Virus record (IMG/VR): IMGVR_UViG_2645727715_000004
DNA: 14,573 nt
Direction: 5' to 3' (one strand)
Origin: a virus
Lineage: Duplodnaviria > Heunggongvirae > Uroviricota > Caudoviricetes
Every line of letters begins with the position of its first letter. Position 1 is the first letter of the stretch. Both the position numbers and the translations under genes were made by a program. This document shows, piece by piece, positions 1-14,573 of this stretch. The notes beneath the pieces were generated by a model, which made no database searches, was not told the DNA's origin, and worked only from the letters and a program-made list of their open reading frames with translations.

Positions 1-320
1 ATATCCGGAGTAATCCATGCATCGTATAGACACGAAAACCGCGCAGAAGGATAAGTTCGGCGCGGGTAAGAACGGTTTTACCCGTGGTAACCCCCAGATC
101 GGCACGCCTGCCACCGATCTGGATGATGACTACTTTGACATGTTGCAGGAGGAGCTTTGCAGCGTTGTGGAGGCGTCCGGTGCCAGCCTGGAGAAGGGGC
201 GGCACGACCAGCTACTTACCGCGCTTCGCGCGCTGCTGTTAAGCCGCAAGAATCCGTTTGGCGATATCAAATCGGATGGCACGGTGAAAACGGCTCTCGA
301 AAACCTTGGTTTGGGAGAAG
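1..320. repeat. Left arm of a 320-bp perfect inverted repeat; carries the RBS and first 101 codons of the tail-fibre gene; outer end coincides with the window edge
   Basis: Reverse complement of 2194..2513 checked base by base at both ends and over 1..114; ORF-track translations at 17..445(+) and 1697..2497(-) are identical for 101 aa. Identity ends at 320/2194. Confidence 0.95.
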
Positions 321-681
321 CGGCAAAACGGGATGTGGGTAACGGGCAAAACCAAATTCCTGATATGTCAGCGTGGGAGTGTGGGGGAGATACAACGACG
401 GGATGGAGGCGAAGCCGGATGGTTATATTGAACAATGGGGGCTAACTGGGGCCACAACAAATGAAGTTTTGATTAATTTTCCTATCCCATTTCCGACAGC
501 CGTCATTTCTATTAATGAACATGACCAGGCTCCTGTGGCAGGGAAAATGTCAGTATGGCAATTCTATAAATTGACTAACTCAAATGTCATAGCAGAGAAC
601 CTGGGATCTCTTGATAAAGGAAATCCATCCTTCAATGTTCCAACTGTCGCTGGTTGCCGCTGGTTTGCTACAGGAAGATAA
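17..681 (+). CDS. Alternative tail fibre protein (S'-like): shared 101-aa N-terminus plus a distinct C-terminal domain; reading frame interrupted by an apparent 1-nt deletion somewhere in 364..445
   Basis: ORF 17..445 shares its N-terminus with the minus-strand fibre; ORF 373..681 (frame open from 364) continues in the -1 frame with a plausible fibre-tip sequence; SD GGAG 7 nt upstream of the ATG at 17; stop TAA 679..681 immediately before the Tfa' start. Confidence 0.6.
294..319 (+). other. Candidate serine-invertase crossover site (hix/gix/cix-like), left copy
   Basis: CTCTCGAAAACC-TT-GGTTTGGGAGAA: 12-bp imperfect half-sites around a 2-bp core with the AAACC/GGTTT core of Hin/Gin/Cin/Pin sites (compare hixL TTCTTGAAAACCAAGGTTTTTGATAA, from memory). 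Lies at the inner boundary of the repeat. Confidence 0.55.
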
Positions 682-682
682 A

Positions 683-1123
683 ATGAGTAAATATCTTTAC
701 GATGCTAAAACTAATATGTTTTACCCATTTACTCTGGAAAGTCAGTATAAGGAGTCTGGGTTATGGCCTCATAATGGAGTTGAAGTTGATGAGGATATAT
801 TTATTAAGTACCTGTCCCCACCTCCAGGGAAGGTGAGAGTTGCGGGTGATGATGGCTATCCTGCATGGGATGACGTACCGCCGCTAACTCATGAAGAACA
901 ACTGTCAGAAGCGGAACGAAAAAAACAGACACTCATAAATCGAGTTAATGAATATATTAACAGTAAGCAGTGGCCAGGAAAGGCTGCTATTGGTCGTCTG
1001 AAAGGTGAGGAACTGGCGCAATATAATTCATGGCTTAATTATCTGGACGCACTGGAAATGGTTGATATTTCCAGTGCTCCAGATATTGAATGGCCTACGC
1101 CTCCGGCTGTTCAGGCCAGATGA
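683..1123 (+). CDS. Tail fibre assembly protein (Tfa/U'-like chaperone) for the alternative fibre
   Basis: ATG at 683, two nt after the fibre stop; N-terminus MSKYLYDAKTNMFYPF and C-terminal motif SAPDIEWP are typical of the enterobacterial phage Tfa family. The 611 start of the ORF track overlaps the fibre frame and is rejected. Confidence 0.75.
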   Translation: MSKYLYDAKTNMFYPFTLESQYKESGLWPHNGVEVDEDIFIKYLSPPPGKVRVAGDDGYPAWDDVPPLTHEEQLSEAERKKQTLINRVNEYINSKQWPGKAAIGRLKGEELAQYNSWLNYLDALEMVDISSAPDIEWPTPPAVQAR

Positions 1124-1697
1124 TATCCGGCGCGGTGCTGGTATCTGTTGCCGTCACCGCGTCAATGTAATCCAGCACGGCGTTAAGTCGGGTTGTTTCT
1201 GCCTGCGTCAGCTTCCGCCCGGCCTGCAATTTCAGTTGAATCAGACTGATGGAAGCCATTGCAGCATCAATCAGCGACTGGCGCTGTGCTTCTGCCGCTT
1301 CTACTGCGGCGCTATGCTGTGCCTCGGTATCCGTCACCCATTTCTCACCATCCCATTTATCGTATGGCGTTAACGGGGCGATAGTGGTTGTATTTTCAGG
1401 ATAATCACCCGGAGCTGTGATTTCTTTCGATTCTCCTGTTTCGGTGCTATAGATGATTTCACCGCGATGGTCTGGCACATATTCCCATGAGTTAAAATCT
1501 GCAGAACGGCAGATTGCATAACCAGCTTTATGTGTAACTGGTGCATCTAAACAAGAACATGCCGGGATACCGACGCCAACCGCAAGATATTCAGTTGATG
1601 TGGAAATATATTCCCGCGTTTCACCATCATAATTATAAATGGTAATGACTCCCGCTTTTATGGCAATGAGTTCGTTATTTAATACGGCTTTATTCAT
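1095..1697 (-). CDS. Tail fibre assembly protein (Tfa/U-like chaperone)
   Basis: 200-aa ORF directly downstream of the fibre gene; C-terminal motif DTSTAPDIIWPEQP resembles the conserved Tfa C-terminus of E. coli prophage TfaE/TfaR-type proteins (from memory). Confidence 0.8.
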   Translation of the reverse strand: MNKAVLNNELIAIKAGVITIYNYDGETREYISTSTEYLAVGVGIPACSCLDAPVTHKAGYAICRSADFNSWEYVPDHRGEIIYSTETGESKEITAPGDYPENTTTIAPLTPYDKWDGEKWVTDTEAQHSAAVEAAEAQRQSLIDAAMASISLIQLKLQAGRKLTQAETTRLNAVLDYIDAVTATDTSTAPDIIWPEQPEA

Positions 1698-2497
1698 CAG
1701 GCAGCCCTCACGATATAATTAAAGGCAATGTTACGAGGACGGTTTTCGTTTGCAGTTGGAACAATTCTTGAAGCATCAAGGCCAATCACTTTTGGGTAAA
1801 CAGCGCCATCTGTTCTTTCTGTCACCATACTTCTGATTAAGGAGAAATAACTATTGTTCGTTGAGGGGTTCAAAGGCACTACTGCCCCCTTAAACGAGCC
1901 TACTGATTCCCATATTGAATAATTTTCGGTGTTTACAGTCTTGAACTCACCATAGATATTACGTATGGCATCGCCCTGAGCGGATAATATTGCCCTCCCC
2001 GTATCCATACCACGTCCGTCATCCCAGCCACGAATAAACTCACCACGTAAATCAGGCAATTTATTTGTCGGGTAAGCCTTTGCCAGCTCCGGGTATTCTT
2101 CAGCAGAAAAAGCTGCTCCGTTGCATTTCAGCCAGCCTGTTGGCGGAGTGGCTGAAGGCCACGGAACAGGCACCCCAACAGGTAATGCAGAGCCTTCTCC
2201 CAAACCAAGGTTTTCGAGAGCCGTTTTCACCGTGCCATCCGATTTGATATCGCCAAACGGATTCTTGCGGCTTAACAGCAGCGCGCGAAGCGCGGTAAGT
2301 AGCTGGTCGTGCCGCCCCTTCTCCAGGCTGGCACCGGACGCCTCCACAACGCTGCAAAGCTCCTCCTGCAACATGTCAAAGTAGTCATCATCCAGATCGG
2401 TGGCAGGCGTGCCGATCTGGGGGTTACCACGGGTAAAACCGTTCTTACCCGCGCCGAACTTATCCTTCTGCGCGGTTTTCGTGTCTATACGATGCAT
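1697..2497 (-). CDS. Tail fibre protein (S-like), currently operon-linked orientation
   Basis: 266-aa ORF; constant N-terminus of 101 aa inside the repeat, then a [22 protein letters not shown] collar-like segment and C-terminal tip; start overlaps the gp48-like stop. Confidence 0.85.
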
Positions 2498-2513
2498 GGA
2501 TTACTCCGGATAT
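2194..2513. repeat. Right arm of the 320-bp inverted repeat; the operon-proximal tail-fibre 5' end plus the last 16 nt of the upstream gp48-like gene
   Basis: Exact reverse complement of 1..320; at 2514 it continues into gp48-like coding sequence that is unique in the window. Confidence 0.95.
2195..2220 (-). other. Candidate serine-invertase crossover site, right copy in inverted orientation
   Basis: Reverse complement of 2195..2220 is identical to 294..319. Confidence 0.55.
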
Positions 2514-3085
2514 TTAAAAATTACGTAGGTATGCGACGGGCAGAGTTTGTTAAGCACACATTCGACAACTGTGTCGCCCCAGATACGCAGTGCGGAATCA
2601 CAGGGATCGCCACATGTCATCCAGGTGGTGTTGGTGGCGGCTGGCATGTTGACCTGCCAGTAATACCGCCATTCAGGCGCGTTCACAGCGTCAGTACAGG
2701 CCGATGAGCAGGTGAACGTGCTTTTGTCGTATCGCGTGATGGTGGCATCTGGTCTGCCCAGGGCAGCAAGCTGTGCAAGATAAAAATCCTCGTTGATGCC
2801 GCCCGCCAGGTTAACCTTCGCATCCAGCCGTTGCTGACGCTGGCGAAGGGTCTGTGTCCCTGCGGGAATACATTCATCCGGCAGACCGCACAGACGCTCC
2901 CAGCGGTTTATCAGTTCAGTGGTGGTGCGCGGATCCAGCTCCCGCATCAGGGCATCCGCACGCTGATGAACGCGGGTTAATGACGGTGCCGCACCGGCAA
3001 TCGCCGGATCGCTGGCTGACCACGCCGGACCGGGGGGCAACAGTGCCGACAACAGACGGATGTAATCATCGTTTGTCACGTCCAT
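2501..3085 (-). CDS. Baseplate/tail protein, Mu gp48-like (P2 gpI-like family)
   Basis: 194-aa ORF in the conserved position between the J-like baseplate gene and the fibre; start overlaps the upstream gene's stop. Confidence 0.65.
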
Positions 3086-4134
3086 GAAATCGTCCCCAGT
3101 ACCGCCAGTTCATTTTTTGCAATGGAGATATTGTCTGCCGGTGCAAGCAACTGATGGCTGTATTCCCCGTTCGCACCGGAAATCGCCTCACTGATACGCG
3201 ATACCTTCAGTTCTCCCTGCGGATAACCATCACGCAGCAGGAACGAACGCAACTCCGCGGTGATGGCAGCCCGTATTTCCGGTGTGTCTGGCGTTACGCG
3301 GATATGAAAATCCACCGTATGCGCCACCGGCCTGAACACATACAAATCAGAGCCTGCCACCGGGGCCAGTGGCTCAATGTGTTGTCTTGCCGCCGTTTCC
3401 GTTGATTCTTCCGGAATGGGATTAATCAGGTCACTGCTGGCAATCATCACACCGACAGTTCCCGTTCCCATCCAGTGACGGTATGTCCATGCGCGGGTAA
3501 TGCCGGGCACTTCTTTAGCCCAGACGACATAGTCCCCGTCAGCCCCGCCCTGAGGCGTCCAGTAATACCGCTCAATGACGCGGGCGCGCCACGTTTCCAG
3601 ATCTTCAGTATCGAATCCGCCAGTCAGGGTATCTGCAACACCGGAAGACGGCAGACCATTCACCGGCGTGACCAGGATTAATGCCGTACCGTCGTCAGCG
3701 TTACCGACCGCGCCTGCACTTGAGCAAGTGATCGGCACGCGCAGGACACCACCGGAGCTGGTTGCATCAGCAGTTGCCGTGTATTGAACCAGGTCAGCGC
3801 GCTGAATCACGCTCCCGGCGGTCACCTTCAGGCCATCGCTGACACCTTCCCAGCGCATATACCCGCTGGCAGCCGTGGCCCCCTTGCGCGGACACCGTTT
3901 CATCGCAGCATGTCGCGCCAGCCAGGACGCATCGCACAGGTCAGGCAGCATGTTCATTGCCAGATAATCGATGTACCCGTAAACCGTATGCAGCGCCGCC
4001 GCATACACCTTTGCCCGCACGTCTTCATCCATGCGCCGGAGCGTGTCGCTGACGTCCAGCCTGGCGAATAAATCGTTACGGAGCATACTGATATTTTCTG
4101 CCAGCGTCGGGCGCTGAAATTCACTGTCCGCCAT
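3076..4134 (-). CDS. Baseplate J-like protein (Mu gp47-like)
   Basis: 352-aa ORF; size and position match the baseplate wedge J family in Mu-like tail modules. Confidence 0.75.
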
Positions 4135-4550
4135 GCGTTATCGCACTCCACAGATCATCAAAAGAAATCATTACCGGTCCGTCACGACGCCAGAGGGTGA
4201 TACTGTTACCCAGCTCATTAATCCCGGTGCGGCGGATATCCAGATCAATACGGGACACCACGCCGTCATCAGTCATCCATTGGAGGCATTCGCGGATATA
4301 CCCCCTTACTGTCTGCACCAGCTGATTGGTCAGTTTGCTGCGCTGAAGCAGCCACAGTCGGGAGCCGTAACGGTCATTCTGTCACCGCAGGCCAGGTATC
4401 CCCCCACCATCCCATCGGGACGTCGGCGTTGTCATCAGGCTCCGCCCGCCGCCAGGTAAACAGGGAAATCACCACGGCGCGGGTCAGCGGATCCAGCGGT
4501 GCGCTGGCGCAGGTGCGTTTACCGTTCACCGTCAGCCACAGTTCCATCAT
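4121..4550 (-). CDS. Baseplate protein, Mu gp46-like (gp25/GPW-like), interrupted by a frameshift near 4374..4382
   Basis: ATG at 4550 opens a 58-codon frame ending TGA at about 4376; the +1 frame continues (QNDRYGSRLWLLQRSKLTNQLVQTVRGY...) to the stop at 4121. Combined length about 143 aa matches the family. Confidence 0.55.
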
Positions 4551-5095
4551 GCCTCCATCGCTTTATCAGGTTTGTCGGTGTTACTGCCCTGACCGTTCTC
4601 TCTGTGACGATGCCCGTTATAGGCAAGCCGCATCGCTGACATGGTAGTGCCGCCGGAGTCGCACAGGTCTTTCACCTGTCCGGTCACTTCCAGGTCCATT
4701 TCAAAACGTGCTTCAGGTGCATTGCGAAACGTGATCGTTTTCCCTGCACCGTCCACCACGATCCCTTCCCGGGTCAGTGTCACGGACTGCCCCTGATCGT
4801 CATAGACAGCCACCTCCCCCGTCTGCAGCCCTTTCAGGCGGTAGCGCCGGTCCGACACCGTAACAACCACCGCATGAGAACGGTCGCCATCCGGAAACAA
4901 CACCACCGCTTCCGCACCGCTGTTTGCCCTTGCGGTAAAACCGTAGGGTTCAAGATGCTCAACCCTGGCTTTGGGTTCACCGGCAATCAGGGACACATCC
5001 ACGGTCTGACATTTCGTGGCGGCACTGATGCTTTTCACCACTGCCCGCCCAATCAGGCCGAGGAGTTGTCGCTGCATGGCTTCAATCGTCCTCAT
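4547..5095 (-). CDS. Baseplate assembly protein V-like / spike (Mu gp45-like)
   Basis: 182-aa ORF; start overlaps the P-like stop (ATGA); size and position fit the gpV family. Confidence 0.75.
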   Translation of the reverse strand: MRTIEAMQRQLLGLIGRAVVKSISAATKCQTVDVSLIAGEPKARVEHLEPYGFTARANSGAEAVVLFPDGDRSHAVVVTVSDRRYRLKGLQTGEVAVYDDQGQSVTLTREGIVVDGAGKTITFRNAPEARFEMDLEVTGQVKDLCDSGGTTMSAMRLAYNGHRHRENGQGSNTDKPDKAMEA

Positions 5096-6174
5096 CAGAA
5101 CGGGTCCTCCTGTACTCTGGCTTTTTTCTTTTTCCGCGCACCGGGATCTTCGGGTTCAGGCAGATAAGCATCAGGCGGGCCGACACGGATTTCCGTCAGG
5201 GTGCCGTTCTGGTCCTGAGTAAACGTGACTTCCGAGACAAGCAGTTCGGTATTGTCGAAACCACAGACCGGATCGAAGACAATCACCCGCTGGTTGGGCT
5301 GCCACAGCGTACCGTTACCCTGTCGCCAGCCCTGCACCACATAGGTGGTTTCATCCGTCCGCGCCGCCCGTTGTCGGGCTTCAAAGTCAGCACGGGCAAT
5401 ACAGCCTGCCCCCGTGGCCTGCCCTGTCTGCCTGATATACATCGGACGGTAACGGGCAATAAATGCGTCCTCTGTGCGGGCCCGCAGCGCGGTGGTGGTG
5501 GCCTCACCGAAATCATCGTCGTTTCCGGCACGCTGCCCCGCCACCTGGTAAACAGAAAACCGCTCCCGGATACTCTTCTCCGTATCGCAGGAAAGGATGT
5601 TTTCCCCAAGTACCAGCGCGGTATGTGCCCGCGTTGAGCCAATACCGCCAATCACCAGCCTGCCGTGCGGGTCGTCGTAAGCCAGCGCCTGCTGCTGACC
5701 GAGTATTTTGTTGATCACCTCAATCACCGTTTCACCGTGATCAGGCTGGACATCAGGAATAACACCAGACGGCGCACCGCTGTTCACCACCTCAATGCCG
5801 AAAGGCGCAGCAAGCGCCTGCGCAATCTGAACCAGCGATCGTCCGTTAAACTGTGTCGGTTCGGCTGCACAGTCAATCAGGTCAGCGGTCAGACTACGCC
5901 CAGCAATACCGGTGCTGACCGAACGGGCATCGTAACGAACGGGAGTCGCCTCCACCCAGCCGGTGATCACCAGCTCATCACCAATCAGCACTTCCACTTT
6001 TGAACCGTTTTTAATACGCGGCTGAAGCGTGGTGATACCCTCATCTCCCGGCCACTGGCGGGTGATCTCCACACTGAAATCCCGCGTCAGCCGTTCAATA
6101 CCGGCACCGATGCGCACCGATGTCCAGCCATTCCACTCCCGGCCATTTACCCGTAGCGTGACGTTATCATTCAT
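5095..6174 (-). CDS. Tail protein, Mu P-like (P2 gpD-like baseplate hub)
   Basis: 359-aa ORF, N-terminus MNDNVTLRVNGREWNGWTSVRIG typical of Mu P / gpD-like tail proteins; follows the N-like gene as in Mu. Confidence 0.75.
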   Translation of the reverse strand: MNDNVTLRVNGREWNGWTSVRIGAGIERLTRDFSVEITRQWPGDEGITTLQPRIKNGSKVEVLIGDELVITGWVEATPVRYDARSVSTGIAGRSLTADLIDCAAEPTQFNGRSLVQIAQALAAPFGIEVVNSGAPSGVIPDVQPDHGETVIEVINKILGQQQALAYDDPHGRLVIGGIGSTRAHTALVLGENILSCDTEKSIRERFSVYQVAGQRAGNDDDFGEATTTALRARTEDAFIARYRPMYIRQTGQATGAGCIARADFEARQRAARTDETTYVVQGWRQGNGTLWQPNQRVIVFDPVCGFDNTELLVSEVTFTQDQNGTLTEIRVGPPDAYLPEPEDPGARKKKKARVQEDPF

Positions 6175-7499
6175 AGCACTGGCACCTTCAGAGGGATCAC
6201 CGGCACAAAGCCGGGATGCGTAATGGCATTACGCCGGATAATGTCCGCGTCACGCGCCGCGTTATCAAACCAGGTCGCCGCCAGCACCAGCGCGGGTAAG
6301 ACCTCATCCGGCGTGCGCTGAATGATCCGTGCAGACTGTTCAAGGCGCGTGTTGATATCCGCATTCAGATCTGCTTTCACCCGGCGCAGCGCCAGAAACA
6401 GCGCATCACTGGTTGTACGGGACAACTCCTTATCAATTGCCGTATTCAGTGTGTCGCGAATGTCAGTCAGTTCTTCCCACGTCGGCAGGTCAACCGTGTT
6501 TTTCACCGCCGGTGCATTGTTCAGTGCCGGATGCGTGACGGAAGGCCAGCCGGTGCTCTGCGCGGGTGTTGTTGACTGCCCCACTGCGGCATTCTGCATC
6601 ACCGCGGAAATTGTTGGCGCAGGCAATCGGGTGATGGCATACGCCGCTTCGCTGATTGCGGTCGTACGAAGGGTGCTGGCAACCACGTTACGCTGCTGCG
6701 TTGCCGTGGCGGTGGTTTTACTGTCCGTTTTCCAGACGCCGCGCGGTTGCAGATCGCTGCCGAGGCTGACACCAGAAAGCGTTTTGATCATGGTGACCAG
6801 GTCGCTGGCGTTACCATAAAGGCGCTTCCCGGTACGCCACATTTTCTGCACCTGCTCAACGAAATTTTTTCCTGACGATGGCGGCGGCAGAAGTACCGAG
6901 ATATCCCCCTGCAACAGCCTGGCGGCATCCGATACGGCAGAATCCACCACTTTCATCGCATCAGAAACATACCCCAGCATTGTGCTGGCATTACCGATAA
7001 CGTCGTTCTGTACGAAACCCGCCACGCCATCGATACTGAAACCACTGAAGCTGTCACTGATGCAGTCATCCAGCGCAGAACAGGATGACATCAGCGTCTG
7101 CGCCGTCGCCGCGCCTGATGTGGGGTAAGAGAGTTCTCCCGCTTCGACAAACTTCAGGTCAAAGCGGACAATACGCCCTTCACTCTTCGATGTGCTGACC
7201 CGAACTTCCCCGTCAACACAGACTTTCAGCTCACCGTATGTCGGGTGGACAAGCATGCCGGGACCGGGTTTATTCAGCGCTTCAATCAGGCGATCGCGCT
7301 GGTCAAAGCAGTCATCTCCCACCACATAAGCCGTGATGGACGGGCGGAAAGTGATTTTCCCCAGGTCTTCGGTATAGGGTTTGTCGCGGTTCGGGTATTC
7401 GTGTGTTTCCACACGACGACCGGTTCCCGCACTTTCTTCTTCAACCTTAAACGGCACACCGCGAAATGACGCGTCCTGAAGTCTGTCTTTCCACGTCAT
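6171..7499 (-). CDS. DNA circularisation protein N-like (Mu gpN family)
   Basis: N-terminus MTWKDRLQDASFRGVPFKVEEES is characteristic of Mu N-like proteins. Start placed at the ATG at 7499 rather than the 7541 start of the ORF track, which would run into the terminator hairpin. Confidence 0.8.
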   Translation of the reverse strand: MTWKDRLQDASFRGVPFKVEEESAGTGRRVETHEYPNRDKPYTEDLGKITFRPSITAYVVGDDCFDQRDRLIEALNKPGPGMLVHPTYGELKVCVDGEVRVSTSKSEGRIVRFDLKFVEAGELSYPTSGAATAQTLMSSCSALDDCISDSFSGFSIDGVAGFVQNDVIGNASTMLGYVSDAMKVVDSAVSDAARLLQGDISVLLPPPSSGKNFVEQVQKMWRTGKRLYGNASDLVTMIKTLSGVSLGSDLQPRGVWKTDSKTTATATQQRNVVASTLRTTAISEAAYAITRLPAPTISAVMQNAAVGQSTTPAQSTGWPSVTHPALNNAPAVKNTVDLPTWEELTDIRDTLNTAIDKELSRTTSDALFLALRRVKADLNADINTRLEQSARIIQRTPDEVLPALVLAATWFDNAARDADIIRRNAITHPGFVPVIPLKVPVL

Positions 7500-7514
7500 A
7501 TAAACTCCGTACAT

Positions 7515-7536
7515 AAAAAATCCCACCGGAGTGGGA
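7515..7536 (-). terminator. Possible weak intrinsic terminator / attenuator between tape measure and N-like gene
   Basis: On the minus strand: 6-bp stem TCCCAC/GTGGGA with 4-nt loop, followed directly by TTTTTT (plus-strand A-run 7515..7520), in a 60-bp intergenic gap. Confidence 0.4.
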
Positions 7537-7559
7537 CTCATTAACAGATTAATTTTTCA

Positions 7560-9393
7560 TTACCTGCCAAAGCGCGTATAGCCAACATCATGGCTGACAT
7601 CAAAACCGCTGGATCGCGTTTCCATAACCCGCATACCCGGAGGCGAATTCACAAAAGAGACCTTGATCTCACCATCAACTTTTGGCGCAGAAGCTTTGTT
7701 AATCATGAAGGGATTCGGGCCTGTGGCATCGGAGGCGTTGTTTGATTGAGCCGGATCTACCGCCGGATAAGGTGTGTATCCCCGCGCCGGTATTCCCGTC
7801 CCATAAGCATCATAAGCACCCGCGCCCCACTGCGCAGAGTTAATGGCATCGACCGTGTCACCGGAACTGTCGGTAAACCACTCAATAATTGGCTTCAGCT
7901 TGTCCCACATATCCTGAAACCACTTAACAACCGGTCCCCAGTTATTGATCACTATCCCCAGCGGCGACCAGGCAAAAACCTTCTTAAGAAGTTCCCAGCC
8001 AGCCTCAAAATAAGGACCAATGGTTTCCCAGAGTTTCTTAAAATAAGGTCCGACAACATCCCAGTTAGTGATAATTAATCCCGCAGCCAGGCTATCGCCG
8101 TCGCAATCATGCCAATCGGCGTCATCGACATAATCCTGCTGACAATACTGATGGCACCGCCAACGCCCATCAATCCCAGTTTCAGAATCGCAAGACCGGC
8201 AGCAAGCCCGACGACGCCGCGAATAACCCGGGGATTTTCATCCGCAAACTTCGTGAATTTTTCCCCTAACTCCCCCAGCCATTGCGTGATATTTTTGGCG
8301 TCACCAGAAAATGCGCCGCCAATAGCCGCAAGGCCGTTAGTTGCGGTCCCCGTCATTGCCTCCCACAGGTTGGACAGCGTTCCAAGCTGGGCCTGAACAC
8401 GTTTATTCAGGCTGGCCTGTTTATTCATCTTCTGCTGGATCTGATCGTAGCCATCCTTTCCTTTATCGATTAGTGCATTGACCACCTGAAGGGTTTCGGC
8501 ATCATCACCAAATATTGCCTTAAGTACACCTGTTCGCTTAACGTCTGTCAGTTTTCGCAGCTTTGCCAGTTGCTTAAACATGTTATCAAGACCGCCAAAA
8601 CTCCCTTTGCCGTCAGTAAAATCGAGCTGCACTCCGAGTTTCTGGCGGGCCATGACTTTATTGACGTCCCTGATTTTCTTAACGCTTAATCCGGACTGGA
8701 TAACTTTTCGCAGGGCATTACCTGCCGACTCCCCGTTCATCCCCATCTGATCCATCATGACGCTGATAGGGGCAAGGCTCTGTGCAGCCTGAAGTCCGTC
8801 CTTATTCACCATCTTCAGAACAGAACTGGTTTTAGTGAAGAAGGACAACATGTTGGTATCGTCAACGCCCAGATAAAACGCCTTCTGGATAGTGTCGAAC
8901 AGCCCCATCATGTCTTCTGACGCCGTTCCGGTAGCATCCTGCATCTTTGCAGCAAACTCAGCAGCCGCTTCCGGTGTTTTTTTCAGTTGTACCGCAAGAT
9001 AAGCTGTCGCTTTACCCACACCACCAAGAATGTTTTCTGCCGGGATCCCTGACGCACCAGCATCTGCATCATGTTCTGGAAATCAGCCGTTGTACCGGGT
9101 AGCTGGTTACCCAGGCCAATAGCCAGTTTATTGATGTCCTGAAAGCTCTTTCCAACCTCGCCGTTCGCATCCATCATAGCGACTTTCAGCCCGGTGGCGG
9201 CGTTTTCCTGATCAGCATAAGATTTCAGGGAAAGCGTCAGACCCGCTGCCAGTCCGCCACCAAGCGCCAGCCCACCCTGTGACGCTTCTTCCGCCTGGCG
9301 TTTAAATCCCCGGATTTTCTTTTGCATTTTCGACAGCGCGGGAGAAAGCCTGTCGACACCGGTGATCAACGCCTTAAGCTCAAATTCAGCCAT
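7560..9393 (-). CDS. Tail tape measure protein, interrupted by two apparent 1-nt deletions (about 9042..9054 and 8071..8080)
   Basis: Three consecutive minus-strand ORFs (8983..9393, 8075..9019, 7560..7952) form one roughly 612-codon reading frame if one base is restored at each junction (VRQG|IPAENILGG and WLRD|LIITNW). Shows the hydrophobic segment and W-rich C-terminal repeats typical of tape measure proteins. Confidence 0.7.
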
Positions 9394-9804
9394 GTGTGCG
9401 TTTCTCCTGCTCTATCCTGTTTGCCTGACTGACCAGCAAGGGAATTTCACTGATCGGCATATTCAGCAATTCGAAGGGATTAATGCGCCAGTAGCTGGCG
9501 CAGTCAAAGAAGCGATCAGTGAGGTATTCAGCCGTCAGGCCTGGAGGAAAAAACCAGCCACAAGCCACGCCGCTGCATTCAGGTCTGCCGGAGACATCTG
9601 GTCGACAGAGCTTTGCGGCACTTTCGCCAGCCGCACAATGTATTTCGACACCACATGCGCCAGAAGTCTGACGGACTCATCCTGATTCATCTGGTAGGGA
9701 TACCCCAGCTCGCGGACATCCTTCCCGGTGGGCTCATCAAACTCCAGTACGGAGAGTGTCTCACCATGAGCGATAATCGGTTTCTTTAACTCAAGCTCTT
9801 TCAT
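9386..9804 (-). CDS. Tail assembly chaperone frameshift fusion product (gpGT / gpE+E' analogue) made by programmed -1 ribosomal frameshift
   Basis: The -1 frame ORF 9386..9568 overlaps the 3' end of the chaperone ORF and ends 8 nt inside the tape measure start; slippery heptamer T_TTT_TTC lies in the overlap. Confidence 0.65.
9535..9804 (-). CDS. Tail assembly chaperone (lambda gpG / P2 gpE analogue)
   Basis: 89-aa ORF between tube and tape measure genes; carries the slippery site at its 3' end. Confidence 0.75.
   Translation of the reverse strand: MKELELKKPIIAHGETLSVLEFDEPTGKDVRELGYPYQMNQDESVRLLAHVVSKYIVRLAKVPQSSVDQMSPADLNAAAWLVAGFFLQA
9547..9553 (-). other. Slippery heptamer T TTT TTC for the programmed -1 frameshift
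   Basis: Minus-strand codons GGT TTT TTC in the zero frame; plus-strand gaaaaaa at 9547..9553. Confidence 0.6.
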
Positions 9805-10160
9805 TACTGGTAATCCCCTTCTTCACCGTGGAACTCAAGATCAACCGTGCCTTCTTCGGCATTATGGTTCGCTTCTCCGTGCAGCCAGGCGGACGACAAT
9901 ACATAGACCTGACCGTTCGCCAGCTCGGCAGTGATAGTCATCTCATCAGACGAGGTGATTTTGTTCACCGGAAAATTCTTCGGCACCTTGAAAGTCCCTT
10001 TGACATAAGGCGCACGGTGAGTTTCCTTGCGGTCCACTGAACCGTCCAGGCCGATGATGTCATCATTGACCGTCCTGTTCATGGGCACCTCAATGCCGCC
10101 GGTCAGCGATAGCTGTTGACCGTCAATTTTGAAATAACAGGTTCCCCCGATACGGGCCAT
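9804..10160 (-). CDS. Tail tube protein (Mu gpM-like)
   Basis: 118-aa ORF immediately downstream of the sheath gene, start overlapping the sheath stop. Confidence 0.75.
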   Translation of the reverse strand: MARIGGTCYFKIDGQQLSLTGGIEVPMNRTVNDDIIGLDGSVDRKETHRAPYVKGTFKVPKNFPVNKITSSDEMTITAELANGQVYVLSSAWLHGEANHNAEEGTVDLEFHGEEGDYQ

Positions 10161-11656
10161 TATGCAGACTCCTCTGAATACTGAAGACGGAACTGGTTAA
10201 CCACGGCAAAGACACGCAACTGGTTAACATAGTCAGGCGGGAACAGCGTGTTCAGGCGGTTCGGATCGCTGGCATCACGCTCCACAACCAGGTACTGCTT
10301 AAACAGTTCGTAGTTTTCCACGATCCCCGCACGCTCAAGCTGACGGTAGGTTGCCAGCAGTTCCCCTTTGATCACCGCCGGTGTGACAATCGCCTGACCG
10401 GGACCAAAGCGGGTACCGTCGCTGGCAAGCTTGTGACGCCCGTACTTACTGGTAATGACGGATTTCAGTTTGCGCAGTACATACGCGCTGGTATGCAGCG
10501 TCTCGCTGTCGAGGTAGCTGTTATCCGCAACACCGTAAGCGTTTTTCCTGTACGTGGTGACATCACGCTGAATGCGCAGCACCCCGCTTTCGACATACGC
10601 CGTTGCCACGCCATGAGACAGCAGGGTCTGTTGTTCGGTCATCGTGAACCGTTTCCCCTTCGGCGCAGGCAGCATACCCACCAGTTCACCGGTCTGCGTG
10701 GGACGTGCCGGATCGTTGCGAATAAACACCGCTGCGCGGGCGGTACGGCTTGCCGCCAGCTCGTCGGCAGGCGTCTGGGTCTCTTTTTCGTATCCCGCCA
10801 GGGTAATGTGCTGCTGGTTAAACTGGTCACCTGCGGTCACCAGTTCTGACAGCGTGCCGGTCTTTGCCGTATACACATGACCATACAGCTGACGCGCATA
10901 GCTCCAGCGACCGCTGGTATCGTTCATCTCGGTCACCAGCGTGTTAACGGAGGCCGTGTCGTTGAACGGCAGGCCGATATAATCAAACGGCTCATCCGCC
11001 ATTGCAGCCACCGCGCCGGTGAGAACCGGAGCGCCCGTTCCGGCGATCCCCGTCGCCACGGCAATCTGTACGCCCGCTGGCAGCACTTCGCCCCCACCAA
11101 AGCCGTAGTAATTGAGGCTGACAGGAATTTCATTCCCGCAAAGCCCCTTATGACGCGCGGTCAGTGTGACCACGCCTGCCGAAGATGAGGCAGTAAACGG
11201 CAGGGTCGGAACGGCATTGATGGCATCTTTGATACTGCTGGCAATCGTCGCGACGTTATCGCCGTTGGTCACCGGTGCCTGCACGCGGGTACGTCCCACA
11301 TAAACATTCACCGTGCCGGTTTCGGTTGCCGCGCCGGTCACCGTCAGCGTAACTGTTGCCGCCGCGCCCGTGGATTCAGGAACGGCAATCACATACAGTT
11401 CACCAAACGGGTCGGTCTGGCGATAAGCCTCGACCATACGCGCCAGCTGACTTCCCGCACCACAAATCTGGCGTGCATAGTCTGCCGATGGCATCAGCAC
11501 CAGACTGTTGGCAACAATCTCTGCACCGTTATTGGCATGACCAATCAGCAGCGATGCTCCGCTGTCCTGTGCAGTATTCGCCGCCGAGTTATCCATTTCC
11601 GCATAAAAAATCGGAACCAGCGTATTCGACGGAATGGTGTTAAAGCTTATCGTCAT
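10160..11656 (-). CDS. Contractile tail sheath protein (Mu gpL-like)
   Basis: 498-aa ORF, N-terminus MTISFNTIPSNTLVPIFYAEMDNS typical of Mu-like sheath proteins; followed by tube and chaperone genes. Confidence 0.85.
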   Translation of the reverse strand: MTISFNTIPSNTLVPIFYAEMDNSAANTAQDSGASLLIGHANNGAEIVANSLVLMPSADYARQICGAGSQLARMVEAYRQTDPFGELYVIAVPESTGAAATVTLTVTGAATETGTVNVYVGRTRVQAPVTNGDNVATIASSIKDAINAVPTLPFTASSSAGVVTLTARHKGLCGNEIPVSLNYYGFGGGEVLPAGVQIAVATGIAGTGAPVLTGAVAAMADEPFDYIGLPFNDTASVNTLVTEMNDTSGRWSYARQLYGHVYTAKTGTLSELVTAGDQFNQQHITLAGYEKETQTPADELAASRTARAAVFIRNDPARPTQTGELVGMLPAPKGKRFTMTEQQTLLSHGVATAYVESGVLRIQRDVTTYRKNAYGVADNSYLDSETLHTSAYVLRKLKSVITSKYGRHKLASDGTRFGPGQAIVTPAVIKGELLATYRQLERAGIVENYELFKQYLVVERDASDPNRLNTLFPPDYVNQLRVFAVVNQFRLQYSEESA

Positions 11657-11810
11657 CGGTATTCACCTTTTCATTCACGCGCCGGATATCACCCGCTGCT
11701 TCACGGCGCAGCCAGTAGTTGTTCTCATCAACATTTCGCCCCTCGGCGGGCAAAAGGTCGCCGCGGGCAGGGTCAGGCACTGACCGCCCTTTAACAGGTT
11801 TCACAAACAT
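11640..11810 (-). CDS. Small ORF (56 aa) upstream of and overlapping the sheath start; not in the supplied ORF track
   Basis: Hand translation: ATG at 11810 nine nt after the preceding gene's stop, MFVKPVKGRSVPDPARGDLLPAEGRNVDENNYWLRREAAGDIRRVNEKVNTDDDKL, stop TAA 11640..11642. Fills the otherwise empty 160-bp gap. Confidence 0.45.
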   Translation of the reverse strand: MFVKPVKGRSVPDPARGDLLPAEGRNVDENNYWLRREAAGDIRRVNEKVNTDDDKL

Positions 11811-11818
11811 GAAGATTC

Positions 11819-12379
11819 TCAGGAAGGAAGGGTTATTTCGGTGTGATGTTCGATATCGCCGTCAGGCCCGTTACCGGGATCGAGATAATCAACATCAATC
11901 GCCAGCGTTCGCAGTTCATCCAGACTGTTCAGGTCATCCTGCTGGCGGGTATCGTCTTCGGTCAGCTCGCTGATGACCGAAAAATCGAACTGATAAATCA
12001 GCTCATGACGATTCAGATCCAGCAGCGTGCCGCCGTCATAGGTAATCGGGTTACCGCACGCTTCCGGGTTCCAGCCCAGCAGGGCCTTAAAGAGCATCTG
12101 CCGGACATCGTCCACCACATCATACGAAGCAAACTGACCGCGCTCATCACGCCCGTTACTCAGTATGACAACCACGGAGAAGCCCTCTTTCAGCTCCTGC
12201 CAGTAGTCGGTCTGGCTTTTGTTTTCTCCCGGAGAATCATCACCCGGTACAACATATGCCGCCGGGAGTTTCAGCTTTCCGACCTCCGGCAGATTTTTGA
12301 ACTGGGCCGCGCCTGCAACCCGGTTTTCAAAATACGGACAGCGGGCACGCAGTGCAGCAATAACAGGCGTCAGTTTCAT
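11819..12379 (-). CDS. Putative neck / tail-completion (tail terminator-like) protein
   Basis: 186-aa ORF between the gp10-like neck gene and the sheath; function assigned by position only. Confidence 0.45.
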   Translation of the reverse strand: MKLTPVIAALRARCPYFENRVAGAAQFKNLPEVGKLKLPAAYVVPGDDSPGENKSQTDYWQELKEGFSVVVILSNGRDERGQFASYDVVDDVRQMLFKALLGWNPEACGNPITYDGGTLLDLNRHELIYQFDFSVISELTEDDTRQQDDLNSLDELRTLAIDVDYLDPGNGPDGDIEHHTEITLPS

Positions 12380-12881
12380 CTGTGTCGTCGCTCCGGCTTC
12401 AGTGATTTACGCAATTCCCGCGCCAGAAAATAGCGTGTCCAGCTGCGGTTCTTTTCAAGCGTTTCCACCATGAAGTTATTACGTGGAGCCAGTCGCCAGC
12501 CGCTGCCACCGGATGCACCACGATGATGGCTGCGACGACGCTTTGCCCCTCGCCTCACGCCATAGAACAAAAAAGCCGGATAAAAATCACCGGTGATACG
12601 GCGGTTTCCCTCTCCATTACGCTGGTTAGGGGCTATACGTGCCATAAAACCAGGGCGATGTTTACTGGCTCTGGGTACCATGTAACCAATCGAACGAGCC
12701 AGGCGTCCGGTCTGATAACCGGGGTTTTCACCCGGTGCCGACCGCGCACGGCGCATCACCAGCGACGGGCATCACGCATATGACGCTGACCAATCGTGAC
12801 AAACGCCCGCCGGACACGGGCGCGGTTAAAGCGCATCTCCGCGGGCTGCTGAAAATCAACGTGCAAAAAGGAAGTCGTCAT
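12376..12881 (-). CDS. HK97 gp10-family head-tail joining protein, interrupted by an apparent 1-nt deletion near 12757..12766
   Basis: ATG at 12881 gives MTTSFLHVDFQQPAEMRFNRARVRRAFVTIGQRHMRDARRW then stop; the -1 frame continues as VMRRARSAPGENPGYQTGRLARS... to 12376. Restoring one base makes one roughly 168-aa protein. Confidence 0.55.
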
Positions 12882-13266
12882 TGTTGCCTCCGTGACTCTG
12901 CCCACATTCGCCCAGCTCCGTACACTCCAGCAGCAGAAAGCGCCGCGCCCCGTTCAGATCGCGCTGACGTTTCACCCGGTACACACTGTCACCGCAGACC
13001 ACCTCATAATCAGCGGTGATCCCCCGGCGGTAACGAATGGTGATGTAATGGGTGATGGCGTCCCCGGTCTGCGCGGTTTCCTGCCAGGTGGTGGCACTGG
13101 TCTGGATAACCTTCGCCCATGTCCGGAACGTAACCGGGTATTGAGGCTCCACGCCAAAGTTATCCGCGGGCATATCCACCCGCTGGCGGATCAGGACGCG
13201 TTTATTCAGTTCACCGGGGTCCGGCAGAATGTAGGTTGCGCTGGTCTGCGCCTGACGAATTTTCAT
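12856..13266 (-). CDS. Head closure / head-tail adaptor protein
   Basis: 136-aa ORF following the connector gene with overlapping start/stop; size and position fit. Confidence 0.6.
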   Translation of the reverse strand: MKIRQAQTSATYILPDPGELNKRVLIRQRVDMPADNFGVEPQYPVTFRTWAKVIQTSATTWQETAQTGDAITHYITIRYRRGITADYEVVCGDSVYRVKRQRDLNGARRFLLLECTELGECGQSHGGNNDDFLFAR

Positions 13267-13586
13267 TGCGGAAAGTACCTGTACGGGCCGACAAGCCAGC
13301 CAAAACTCTGCGGCATGTCGAGTTTCTCCACTTCCGTAACCGACGAGCGGTTTTCGTAAAAATGGCTGATAAGCATCAGCATCCCCAGACGAATATCATC
13401 CGGCAGGTGCAGCCCGTCCGGATCGCTGTCCGGAATGGTTTCATCCGGTGCATAGAGCTTCCGGTTCAGATACGTTTCCGTCCGCTTTTGTGCCGCACAG
13501 GCCAGCAGTTGCAGATGGCGGTCATCAGCATCGAAATCCTCATCCAGCCGGAGTTGGGCTTTAATCTCTTCCATTGTCAGAAGCAT
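13263..13586 (-). CDS. Head-tail connector protein (HK97 gp6-like)
   Basis: 107-aa acidic ORF, MLLTMEEIKAQLRLDEDFDADDRHLQLL..., typical of gp6-like connector proteins; conserved position after the capsid gene. Confidence 0.65.
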   Translation of the reverse strand: MLLTMEEIKAQLRLDEDFDADDRHLQLLACAAQKRTETYLNRKLYAPDETIPDSDPDGLHLPDDIRLGMLMLISHFYENRSSVTEVEKLDMPQSFGWLVGPYRYFPQ

Positions 13587-13588
13587 AC

Positions 13589-13789
13589 TCAGCCCTCTTT
13601 ACTGGTCGTGGCTTTTTTCTCTTTTGCCGCTTTACTGCTTTTTGCACTGATTCCGCGCTCTGCTAACCCGGCCTGAAGTGCAATCTCCTGCACCCGGGCA
13701 GGAAGCGCCCCGTCGTCATACTCACCGGCCCGAATGACCTCAACACGCATACCGTCCGGTGACCATTTCAGATCTTGTTTCAGGATCAT
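13589..13789 (-). CDS. Hypothetical small phage protein (66 aa, lysine-rich C-terminus)
   Basis: ORF with SD-like GGTGAAG upstream of ATG at 13789; sits between capsid and connector genes. Confidence 0.45.
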   Translation of the reverse strand: MILKQDLKWSPDGMRVEVIRAGEYDDGALPARVQEIALQAGLAERGISAKSSKAAKEKKATTSKEG

Positions 13790-13811
13790 GATTCTTCACC
13801 CGTCAGAACAG

Positions 13812-13831
13812 GGGGCGCGGTTCCGCGCCCC
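13812..13831 (-). terminator. GC-rich hairpin just after the major capsid gene; possible attenuator or RNA-stability element
   Basis: 9-bp GC stem GGGGCGCGG/CCGCGCCCC (13812..13820 / 13823..13831) in the 49-bp gap after the capsid stop; no clear U-tract on the minus strand. Confidence 0.35.
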
Positions 13832-13838
13832 TGAGTGA

Positions 13839-14573
13839 TTACGCCGCTGCAATCTTCAGCAGTTTGATGGCCTGCGAATCGACCAGCATCCCGCCGGTGC
13901 GCTTGGTGGTATAAAAACCGACAAACGGTTTATTGGTGTACGGGTCACGCAGAATGCGGGTGCCGATACGGTCAACGATGGTGTAACCCCGTTTGAAGTT
14001 ACCAAATGCAATGGCTTTCGCATCAGCGGCGATATCCGGCATCTGTTCGTTTTCAGCGATACCGTAACCCGCCAGAGAGGACGGCTGCCCCAGTTCCAGC
14101 CCCGGACGCCACAGATAGTTACCCTCGGTGTCTTTCAGCAGACGGATGGCAAACAGGCTGTTGTTGTTCATCATGAACTTCGCGCCAGTGCGGTGTGCCT
14201 TACGCAGCGTGTAAATCAGTTTGATAATGGCGTCTGCGGTCACCGCGGTCGCTTCGCCGGATACAATATGCTGAAGTTTGCCGAACGCCCGGACCTTATC
14301 GGTTTCATCAGTAGATTCATACGCCAGGAACCCTTTTGGCTTCTTGGTACCATCGCCGGTGGTAAAGGCAATTTCTTCCTGTTCGGCAAATTCGGTCGCC
14401 AGCTCGCTGTTGATCCAGGCCTCCACGTTGAAGAAGGCATCGTCCAGCATTTTCTGGGTAGCCTGCGGGTTGCCGTAGATTTCCCCCATGAGAGGTTCAA
14501 TCAGCTCCAGTCTGGAGGTGGCAGTCTGGGATCGCGTATCCGTTACCCCCACCCATCCGGAAGCCGTACCGCC
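13839..14573 (-). CDS. Major capsid protein, HK97 family (5'-truncated; continues beyond the right edge)
   Basis: C-terminal region shows the GNFKRGYTIVDR and RILRDPYT type motifs of HK97-fold capsid proteins; the frame stays open upstream of the listed M to base 14573. Confidence 0.85.
   Translation of the reverse strand, partial: GGTASGWVGVTDTRSQTATSRLELIEPLMGEIYGNPQATQKMLDDAFFNVEAWINSELATEFAEQEEIAFTTGDGTKKPKGFLAYESTDETDKVRAFGKLQHIVSGEATAVTADAIIKLIYTLRKAHRTGAKFMMNNNSLFAIRLLKDTEGNYLWRPGLELGQPSSLAGYGIAENEQMPDIAADAKAIAFGNFKRGYTIVDRIGTRILRDPYTNKPFVGFYTTKRTGGMLVDSQAIKLLKIAAA

Follow-up and report, generated by a model that had tools for sequence, protein, structure and literature searches.

SfI, SfII, SfV and SfIV are temperate phages of Shigella and E. 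coli that carry a Mu-like contractile tail and an HK97-like head, and their gene order is shared by the DNA analysed here. This stretch of 14,573 nucleotides, hereafter the window, is the entire contig LEKZ01000190.1 of E. coli D92/09 (GCA_001038025.1). The shared order comprises major capsid, sheath, tube, chaperone, tape measure, DNA circulation, baseplate and fibre, and window positions 2194-14573 (~12.4 kb) are 97-98% identical at the nucleotide level to SfI, SfII and SfV. The collinearity of the late operon and the high identity to the type phages place the window among the SfI/SfV-like phages, and Pfam domains of sheath, tube, Mu Gp45/46/48 and baseplate J are found in it. The fibre end carries a Pin-invertible cassette of alternative fibre and chaperone, as in e14-type E. 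coli prophages, whereas the Shigella phages have gtr O-antigen modification genes at this end and no Pin-invertible cassette. The cryptic prophage e14 of E. coli K-12 has related genes, and the RefSeq names ymfQ, ymfR, tfaE and pinE appear in the intact relatives of the window. Genuine prophage decay generally shows itself in large deletions, IS insertions and the loss of whole modules; compared with decayed prophages of the e14 kind, the window shows five single-nucleotide indels and nothing more.

The invertible fibre segment

The G segment of Mu, inverted by Gin, and the P segment of e14, inverted by Pin, are each flanked by crossover sites and hold fibre-tip and chaperone genes as two pairs in opposite orientation, and the window has the same arrangement. 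In contrast to these switches, the contig has the constant part of the fibre on both sides of the segment, which is impossible for one molecule. The additional copy lies at the contig end:

1-320, no strand assigned: contig end, a perfect inverted copy of 2194-2513 (320 nt, 100% complementary)

These positions hold the fibre gene's constant 5' portion, which meets the alternative fibre at the Pin crossover core; hix/gix-like sites of 26 bp lie at 294-319 and 2195-2220. Since 1-320 is an inverted copy of the constant fibre part, the contig is a mixture of both orientations of the invertible segment, i.e. of reads from both. The same flipped junction is present in one near-identical relative, L014, and position 305, on the pin side, is G and not C in L027 and L007. 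As a 14.6-kb contig with a repeat at its end, the window resembles the contigs of short-read assemblies.

Five single-nucleotide indels in four late genes

When the window is aligned with phage SfI, with two complete E. coli prophages and with about 20 further relatives, exactly five 1-nt indels emerge, falling after positions 416, 4382, 8091, 9049 and 12762. The sequence-only reading had described five single-nucleotide frameshifts in five interrupted genes; the number and nature of the frameshifts are borne out, but the genes are four, namely the alternative tail fibre, gp46, the tape measure, which is hit twice, and the Neck1/tail-completion protein. It had also placed the indels mostly in short homopolymers, and indeed four of them remove one base from a G/C run of 2-4 nt, the fifth being an insertion outside any homopolymer. 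The indels and the genes that they affect are the following:

416-417, plus strand: indel 1, CCC minus one C (GAAGCC-GGATG), in the alternative tail-fibre frame
4383, minus strand: indel 2, an extra C, TCTGT[C]ACCG (plus-strand letters), no homopolymer, in gp46
8091-8092, minus strand: indel 3, GGG to GG, second frameshift of the tape measure gene (7560-9393)
9049-9050, minus strand: indel 4, CCCC to CCC, first frameshift of the tape measure gene
12762-12763, minus strand: indel 5, CC to C, in the 168-aa tail completion/Neck1 gene (12376-12881)
4121-4547, minus strand: gp46, split, a baseplate protein of the Mu Gp46 family (Pfam GP46, E=2e-32)
7560-9393, minus strand: tape measure gene, in three ORFs (8983-9393, 8075-9019, 7560-7952), Pfam PhageMin_Tail

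The alternative fibre frame is broken by indel 1 in ORF 17-445 and resumes in the frame of 373-681, and indel 2 cuts gp46 down to a fragment of 57 aa (4374-4547). N-terminal fragments are left by indel 4 in the tape measure (136 aa, 8983-9393) and by indel 5 in Neck1 (41 aa, 12756-12881). The label 'gp10-like', given earlier to the last of these genes, was rejected: the 168-aa protein has no family in the Pfam scan, and its match among the PHROGs is number 879 (tail completion or Neck1). Repair of the five bases restores ORFs of 611 aa (tape measure), 141 aa (gp46) and 168 aa, all identical to proteins of the relative L009, and, at indel 1, an alternative fibre of 221 aa. Beyond the five indels, no nonsense mutation, IS element or deletion was found in the window, and gene order and overlaps are the same as in intact relatives, in agreement with the earlier remark that the overlaps are preserved.

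Comparison with closely related prophages, which the sequence-only reading had named as a check, finds all four broken genes intact in near-identical relatives (L009, with L014 and L027 for the fifth site). Over window positions 1753-14132 (12.4 kb), L009 (GCA_966508645.1) differs by four of the five indels and a single synonymous SNP at 7746 (CAA/CAG, Gln), so that the claim of no other damage holds. The site of indel 1 lies outside the coverage of L009 and is spanned by L014 and L027. Over 2194-4956 and 1-521, L014 has no SNP and differs by the indels at 4382 and 416 only, and L027 has three SNPs over 301-4079 in addition to the 416 indel. These three relatives, at 0-3 SNPs, lack every indel at the sites that they span. 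At indel 1, CCC is present in L003, L007, L014 and L027; the extra C of indel 2 is missing from 20 of 20 relatives, the otherwise identical L014 included; and 18 accurate relatives keep the base deleted by indel 3, a deletion common only to two error-prone Logan assemblies, L005 and L006.

The same picture is obtained from complete E. coli genomes, in which the 81-mer around each indel was never matched exactly: 0 of the 50 genomes holding it at indel 1, and, among those with a homologous 81-mer, 0 of 1,097 at indel 2, 0 of 906 at indel 3, 0 of 894 at indel 4 and 0 of 1,010 at indel 5. The best matches are all 98.8% identical, which corresponds to one gap. No second occurrence of the truncated products was found by exact look-up in about 15 billion proteins, the 57-aa and 136-aa fragments being present on the window contig only; exact look-ups of several C-terminal fragments were uninformative because gene callers choose differing start codons. 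Lesions inherited in the course of decay would be shared, whereas the indels are private among about 20 relatives and among 50 to 1,097 complete genomes per site. Likewise, decay would bring a mixed spectrum of lesions with a matching substitution divergence, and what is found is 1-nt indels only, beside one synonymous SNP in 12.4 kb.

Origin of the indels

We propose that the five frameshifts are very probably not mutations but errors in the consensus of an Ion Torrent PGM assembly of low coverage, a judgement drawn from sequence comparison and from the published platform, and we infer that each individual indel is an error. The genome announcement of D92/09 reports sequencing on an Ion Torrent PGM (314 chip; 399,241 reads; 16.5x coverage) and a draft of 343 contigs, 5,893 CDS and 5.08 Mb (PMC4588619). 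A flow-based platform and modest coverage thus lie behind the assembly, the CDS density of which is ~1.16 per kb. The usual density in E. coli is roughly one CDS per kb, and a value above this norm is expected if many genes are split. Homopolymer indels causing frameshifts have been documented in Ion Torrent assemblies, which make up a disproportionately large share of the genomes that RefSeq excludes for 'many frameshifted proteins' (PMC12046094). The sequence-only reading had considered a long-read homopolymer artefact as one of two options. The artefact part of this proposal is strongly supported; the long-read part was rejected because the published platform is Ion Torrent, and the errors would be those of flow-based semiconductor short reads. 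On such a platform, each homopolymer yields one analogue pH signal, from which its length is often under-called, stray insertions of single bases arise as well, and at 16.5x a part of such miscalls wins the consensus. The underlying prophage belongs to the SfI/SfII/SfV-like temperate phages and has a Mu-like contractile tail. Since its late region over the window is most likely the same as the intact copies in other E. coli isolates, the sequence, as we read it, offers no evidence of inactive tail genes or lost inducibility.

The likeness to known homopolymer artefacts of Ion Torrent and 454 is found in the 1-nt size of the indels, their private occurrence, the unstable run lengths and the inflated CDS count. 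Some observations run against an artefact. The runs hit in the window measure 2-4 nt, whereas errors of Ion Torrent concentrate in longer ones, with a mean of 5.5 nt (PMC12046094); in the classic picture these are mostly runs of A, whereas those in the window are all G/C. The insertion at 4383 lies outside any homopolymer, and three indels recur in a Logan assembly. The Logan contig in question, SRR1710770_289, matches window positions 7982-14540 (6.56 kb) with 0 substitutions and carries the indels at 8091, 9049 and 12762, which would accordingly be borne by many reads and not be a quirk of one assembler. Five further single bases are deleted in it, each from an A, T or C homopolymer of 3-6 nt, and at these sites the NCBI contig agrees with the relatives. 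SRR1710770 is probably the D92/09 read set: a literature search for the run found no paper, and run and strain are linked by sequence identity only. For the window half with indels 1 and 2, exact look-ups with gp45, gp47, the 266-aa fibre and the 57-aa fragment of gp46 found no SRR1710770 contig, so that three of the five indels can be compared between the assemblies. Homopolymer lengths thus vary from one assembly to the other, although both apparently stem from one isolate, as is characteristic of Ion Torrent error. A further Logan assembly, SRR12298851 (L006), is unrelated and error-prone; it differs from L009 by four indel events over 1.28 kb (~3 per kb), one of which is the identical loss of GGG to GG at 8091. 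Since L006 has the common base at the SNP site 7746, it is not of the lineage of the window, and the recurrence of this loss points to a context-dependent miscall.

The opposite reading, that all five indels are real and very recent and that the D92/09 prophage is starting to decay and no longer makes tails, could draw on the recurrence of three indels in a separate assembly, although apparently of the same reads, on the location of all five in structural genes, whose loss would be neutral in a lysogen, and on the decay seen in cryptic relatives such as e14. We consider it extremely improbable. The closest intact copy is one synonymous substitution away in 12.4 kb, so that the first stage of decay suggested by the sequence-only reading would need four to five frameshifts within the time of one such substitution. 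Spontaneous indels in E. coli are about ten times rarer than substitutions in mutation-accumulation studies, so that five indels beside a single substitution would be expected with a probability on the order of 1e-5 to 1e-3, even if the strain were a mutator. Nonsense mutations, IS elements and deletions are moreover missing, none of the indels is present in the 50 to 1,097 complete genomes, and the platform is known for exactly such errors. Equally, it can be asked whether the interruptions are functional recoding, by programmed ribosomal frameshifts or phase-variable tracts. Phage tail operons do employ programmed frameshifting, and the tail chaperone gene in the window has a conserved T_TTT_TTC slippery site; yet this gene, outside the five sites, is the only place where two conserved ORFs coincide with such a site. 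At the five sites there is no slippery heptamer, phase variation would require longer runs, and recoding was rejected because every relative has a single uninterrupted ORF at all five, which leaves it a probability close to nil.

An intermediate case, in which most of the indels are errors and one is real, would have its candidates in 4383 (gp46) and 8091 (tape measure), and a single true frameshift would suffice for a tail-defective prophage. The former differs from the other four in being an insertion outside a homopolymer, but it is missing from all 20 relatives, L014 among them, and from 1,097 genomes, and its 57-aa gp46 product is confined to the window contig. The deletion at 8091 occurs in two unrelated read sets, but the second of these is full of indel errors and, by the base at 7746, of a different lineage, and 906 complete genomes lack the deletion. 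Such a mixture appears highly improbable. That at least one of the five is a true mutation, likeliest 4383 in gp46 or the recurrent 8091, is in our view very unlikely; if it were so, the D92/09 prophage would have been caught at most a few generations from its loss of tail assembly, with its Pin switch still flipping.

With consensus error as the preferred explanation, the five frameshifts would be an assembly artefact and no real biological feature, and the biology of the prophage would be unaffected. The window contig, and by extrapolation the entire D92/09 draft, would contain about one indel error per 3 kb, and pseudogene calls, the CDS count and inferences on defective prophages or virulence genes drawn from this draft would be untrustworthy without polishing. 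A cluster of isolated 1-nt frameshifts, without other divergence from intact relatives, is a sign of assembly quality and not of gene decay.

The late operon and its five single-nucleotide indels

The ORF listing of the window comprises one long minus-strand operon and, at the left end, a short cassette on the plus strand, with gene identities taken from annotated relatives and from Pfam and PHROG assignments. By megablast, the temperate phages SfI, SfII, SfV and SfIV show 97-98% identity to positions 2194-14573, and E. coli prophages by the hundreds cover more than 80% of the window.

Gene order of the window (minus strand, right to left, unless stated)
Genes 1-4: major capsid (cut by the contig end), head-tail connector, head closure, tail completion/Neck1
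Genes 5-9: tail terminator, DUF2635, sheath, tube, tail assembly chaperone
Genes 10-12: tape measure, DNA circulation, baseplate hub
Genes 13 to end: Gp45, Gp46, baseplate J/Gp47, Gp48, tail fibre and fibre chaperone
Left end, beyond the minus-strand fibre, opposite orientation: alternative chaperone and fibre tip

The SfI record (NC_027339) has 29 bases more than the window in the head-tail connector gene, opposite position 13520, and no CDS annotated there (gap between gp07 and gp09); it may itself hold a disrupted or mis-sequenced gene.

Gapped alignments with three references, seven close relatives, a 27-locus anchor survey and L027, the closest relative covering the left end, give exactly five indels in the window, each of 1 nt.

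Indels of the window
After 416: CCC to CC, alternative fibre
4383: extra C, TGT[C]ACC, outside a homopolymer, gp46
After 8091: GGG to GG, tape measure
After 9049: CCCC to CCC, tape measure
After 12762: CC to C, Neck1-like gene

In three-frame translation the tape measure lies in three pieces of 136, 314 and 130 aa, while gp46 stops after 57 aa and the Neck1-like gene after 41 aa. Repair of the five bases yields ORFs of 611, 141 and 168 aa whose products are identical to those of L009 (GCA_966508645.1), the closest relative, as well as a 221-aa alternative fibre. The alignments, translations and repair bear out the sequence-only reading that frameshifts occur here without other damage: there are five, in four genes, and the rest is intact. 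Comparison with near-identical prophages, which that reading had proposed as a check, found none of the indels within the span of three such relatives. L009 differs over 1753-14132 only by four of the indels and one substitution, a synonymous change at 7746 in a CAA/CAG glutamine codon of the tape measure; L014 shows 0 substitutions over 2194-4956 and 1-521 and lacks the indels at 4383 and 416; L027, with three substitutions over 301-4079, is free of the 416 indel.

Queries of 81 nt centred on each indel were compared with 5,426 complete E. coli genomes, of which 1,097 (4383), 906 (8091), 894 (9049), 1,010 (12762) and 50 (416) have the locus. None of these genomes contains an exact match to an indel-bearing 81-mer at any of the five sites, and the best matches have 98.8% identity throughout, with the record span one base under or over the query. 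The insertion at 4383 is the least typical error of the five, lying outside a homopolymer; it is present in 0 of 20 relatives and 0 of the 1,097 complete genomes with the locus. The truncated N-terminal products have no other occurrence among ~15 billion proteins.

The chaperone frameshift and the invertible fibre segment

The tail chaperone gene (9535-9804, minus strand; Pfam Phage_TAC_7; region 9386-9804) ends in GGT TTT TTC, with the slippery heptamer T_TTT_TTC within it (~9543-9551). The -1 frame is open from this site to a TGA overlapping the tape measure ATG, and 22 fetched loci share an identical 24-nt stretch that includes the motif. These features mark the site as the programmed -1 frameshift that tail chaperones conserve; it is the only genuine frameshift of the window and separate from the five indels. 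Its T6 run is correctly read.

Positions 1-320 perfectly repeat, in inverted orientation, 2194-2513, which is the constant 5' portion of the fibre gene; hix/gix-like sites of 26 bp occupy 294-319 and 2195-2220 (shuffled-sequence mean, 0.01 such matches). At position 305 the window has the fibre-side base, where L027 and another left-end relative, L007, have the pin-side base, so that 1-305 represents the constant part of the fibre, fused at the crossover core to the alternative tip; L014 has the same flipped-state junction. The 'complete' alternative fibre ORF (17-682) represents the gene in its flipped state. The junction and the inverted copy place both orientations of the Pin-invertible segment in one contig; the culture that was sequenced probably contained flipped as well as unflipped cells, which points to an active Pin.

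Cassette orientation also differs among related prophage assemblies (L018, L022 and L023 versus L016, L017 and L019-L021), and the cassette of L022 is longer than the rest and carries more gene calls. Since the cassette is assembled either way round across genomes, the Pin switch is in use across the family, with varying content. In L027 (3842-3970) the resolvase/Pin gene is called as 42 aa only, with a GmrSD-type gene after it; that assembly may hold a truncated or interrupted invertase.

Probable assembly error versus recent decay

Ion Torrent produces short reads by flow-based sequencing, and its typical error is to call a homopolymer at the wrong length. By exact-protein look-up, the truncated products were found on one NCBI contig only, the 14,573-bp LEKZ01000190.1 (assembly GCA_001038025.1), which is the window itself except for an N at 14545 (window: A); this ambiguous base is only 29 nt from the end of the contig, as would suit a consensus built at low coverage. 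The sequence-only reading had invoked long-read error, which does not hold: the accession belongs to the announced genome of E. coli D92/09, for which the published platform is the Ion Torrent PGM (314 chip, 399,241 reads, 16.5x coverage; 343 contigs, 5,893 CDS, 5.08 Mb; PMC4588619). According to a recent comparison of Ion Torrent with Illumina, homopolymer errors of this kind lead to frameshifts in assemblies, and among the genomes that RefSeq excludes for 'many frameshifted proteins' those from Ion Torrent are over-represented (PMC12046094). The window has 24 gene calls against ~20 in intact relatives. The high CDS density of D92/09, 1.16 per kb where ~1 per kb is usual for E. coli, fits with the five extra gene calls in the window.

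A second assembly, Logan contig SRR1710770_289, matches 7982-14540 with 0 substitutions and therefore presumably derives from the same D92/09 isolate. It carries all three window indels of its range (8091, 9049, 12762) and five more 1-nt deletions, in TTTT, AAAAAA, AAA, CCCC and AAAAA, at sites where all relatives support the NCBI contig; the read set thus miscalls run lengths so often that eight errors became fixed over 6.56 kb in the k-mer assembly and three in the deposited contig. From the Logan assembly of this run, no contig was recovered for the half of the window with the indels at 416 and 4383. The contig L006 (Logan SRR12298851_2119, equivalent to 6918-8198) comes from an unrelated, error-ridden run and carries a prophage of the L009 type, though with the common C at 7746; four indel events fall within its 1.28 kb, one being the same GGG to GG at 8091. 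This recurrence looks like a context-dependent miscall, since GGG stands in 906 complete genomes and 18 accurate relatives, although identical errors usually do not recur (PMC12046094), which leaves a small loose end.

Between the artefact and the recent prophage decay that the sequence-only reading had set side by side, the former is retained, given the Ion Torrent source, the private indels and the run lengths that vary between assemblies. Real decay would place four or five frameshifts within the time of one silent substitution. As spontaneous indels in E. coli are ~10x rarer than substitutions, its probability is, by rough inference, ~1e-5, or ~1e-3 in a mismatch-repair mutator. The five frameshifts are no real biological feature; we hold with high confidence, on indirect evidence for each indel, that they are assembly errors, and the combined chance that at least one is real is slight. 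The prophage late region is most likely the same as the intact copies circulating in E. coli, and the window sequence is therefore no evidence of lost inducibility.
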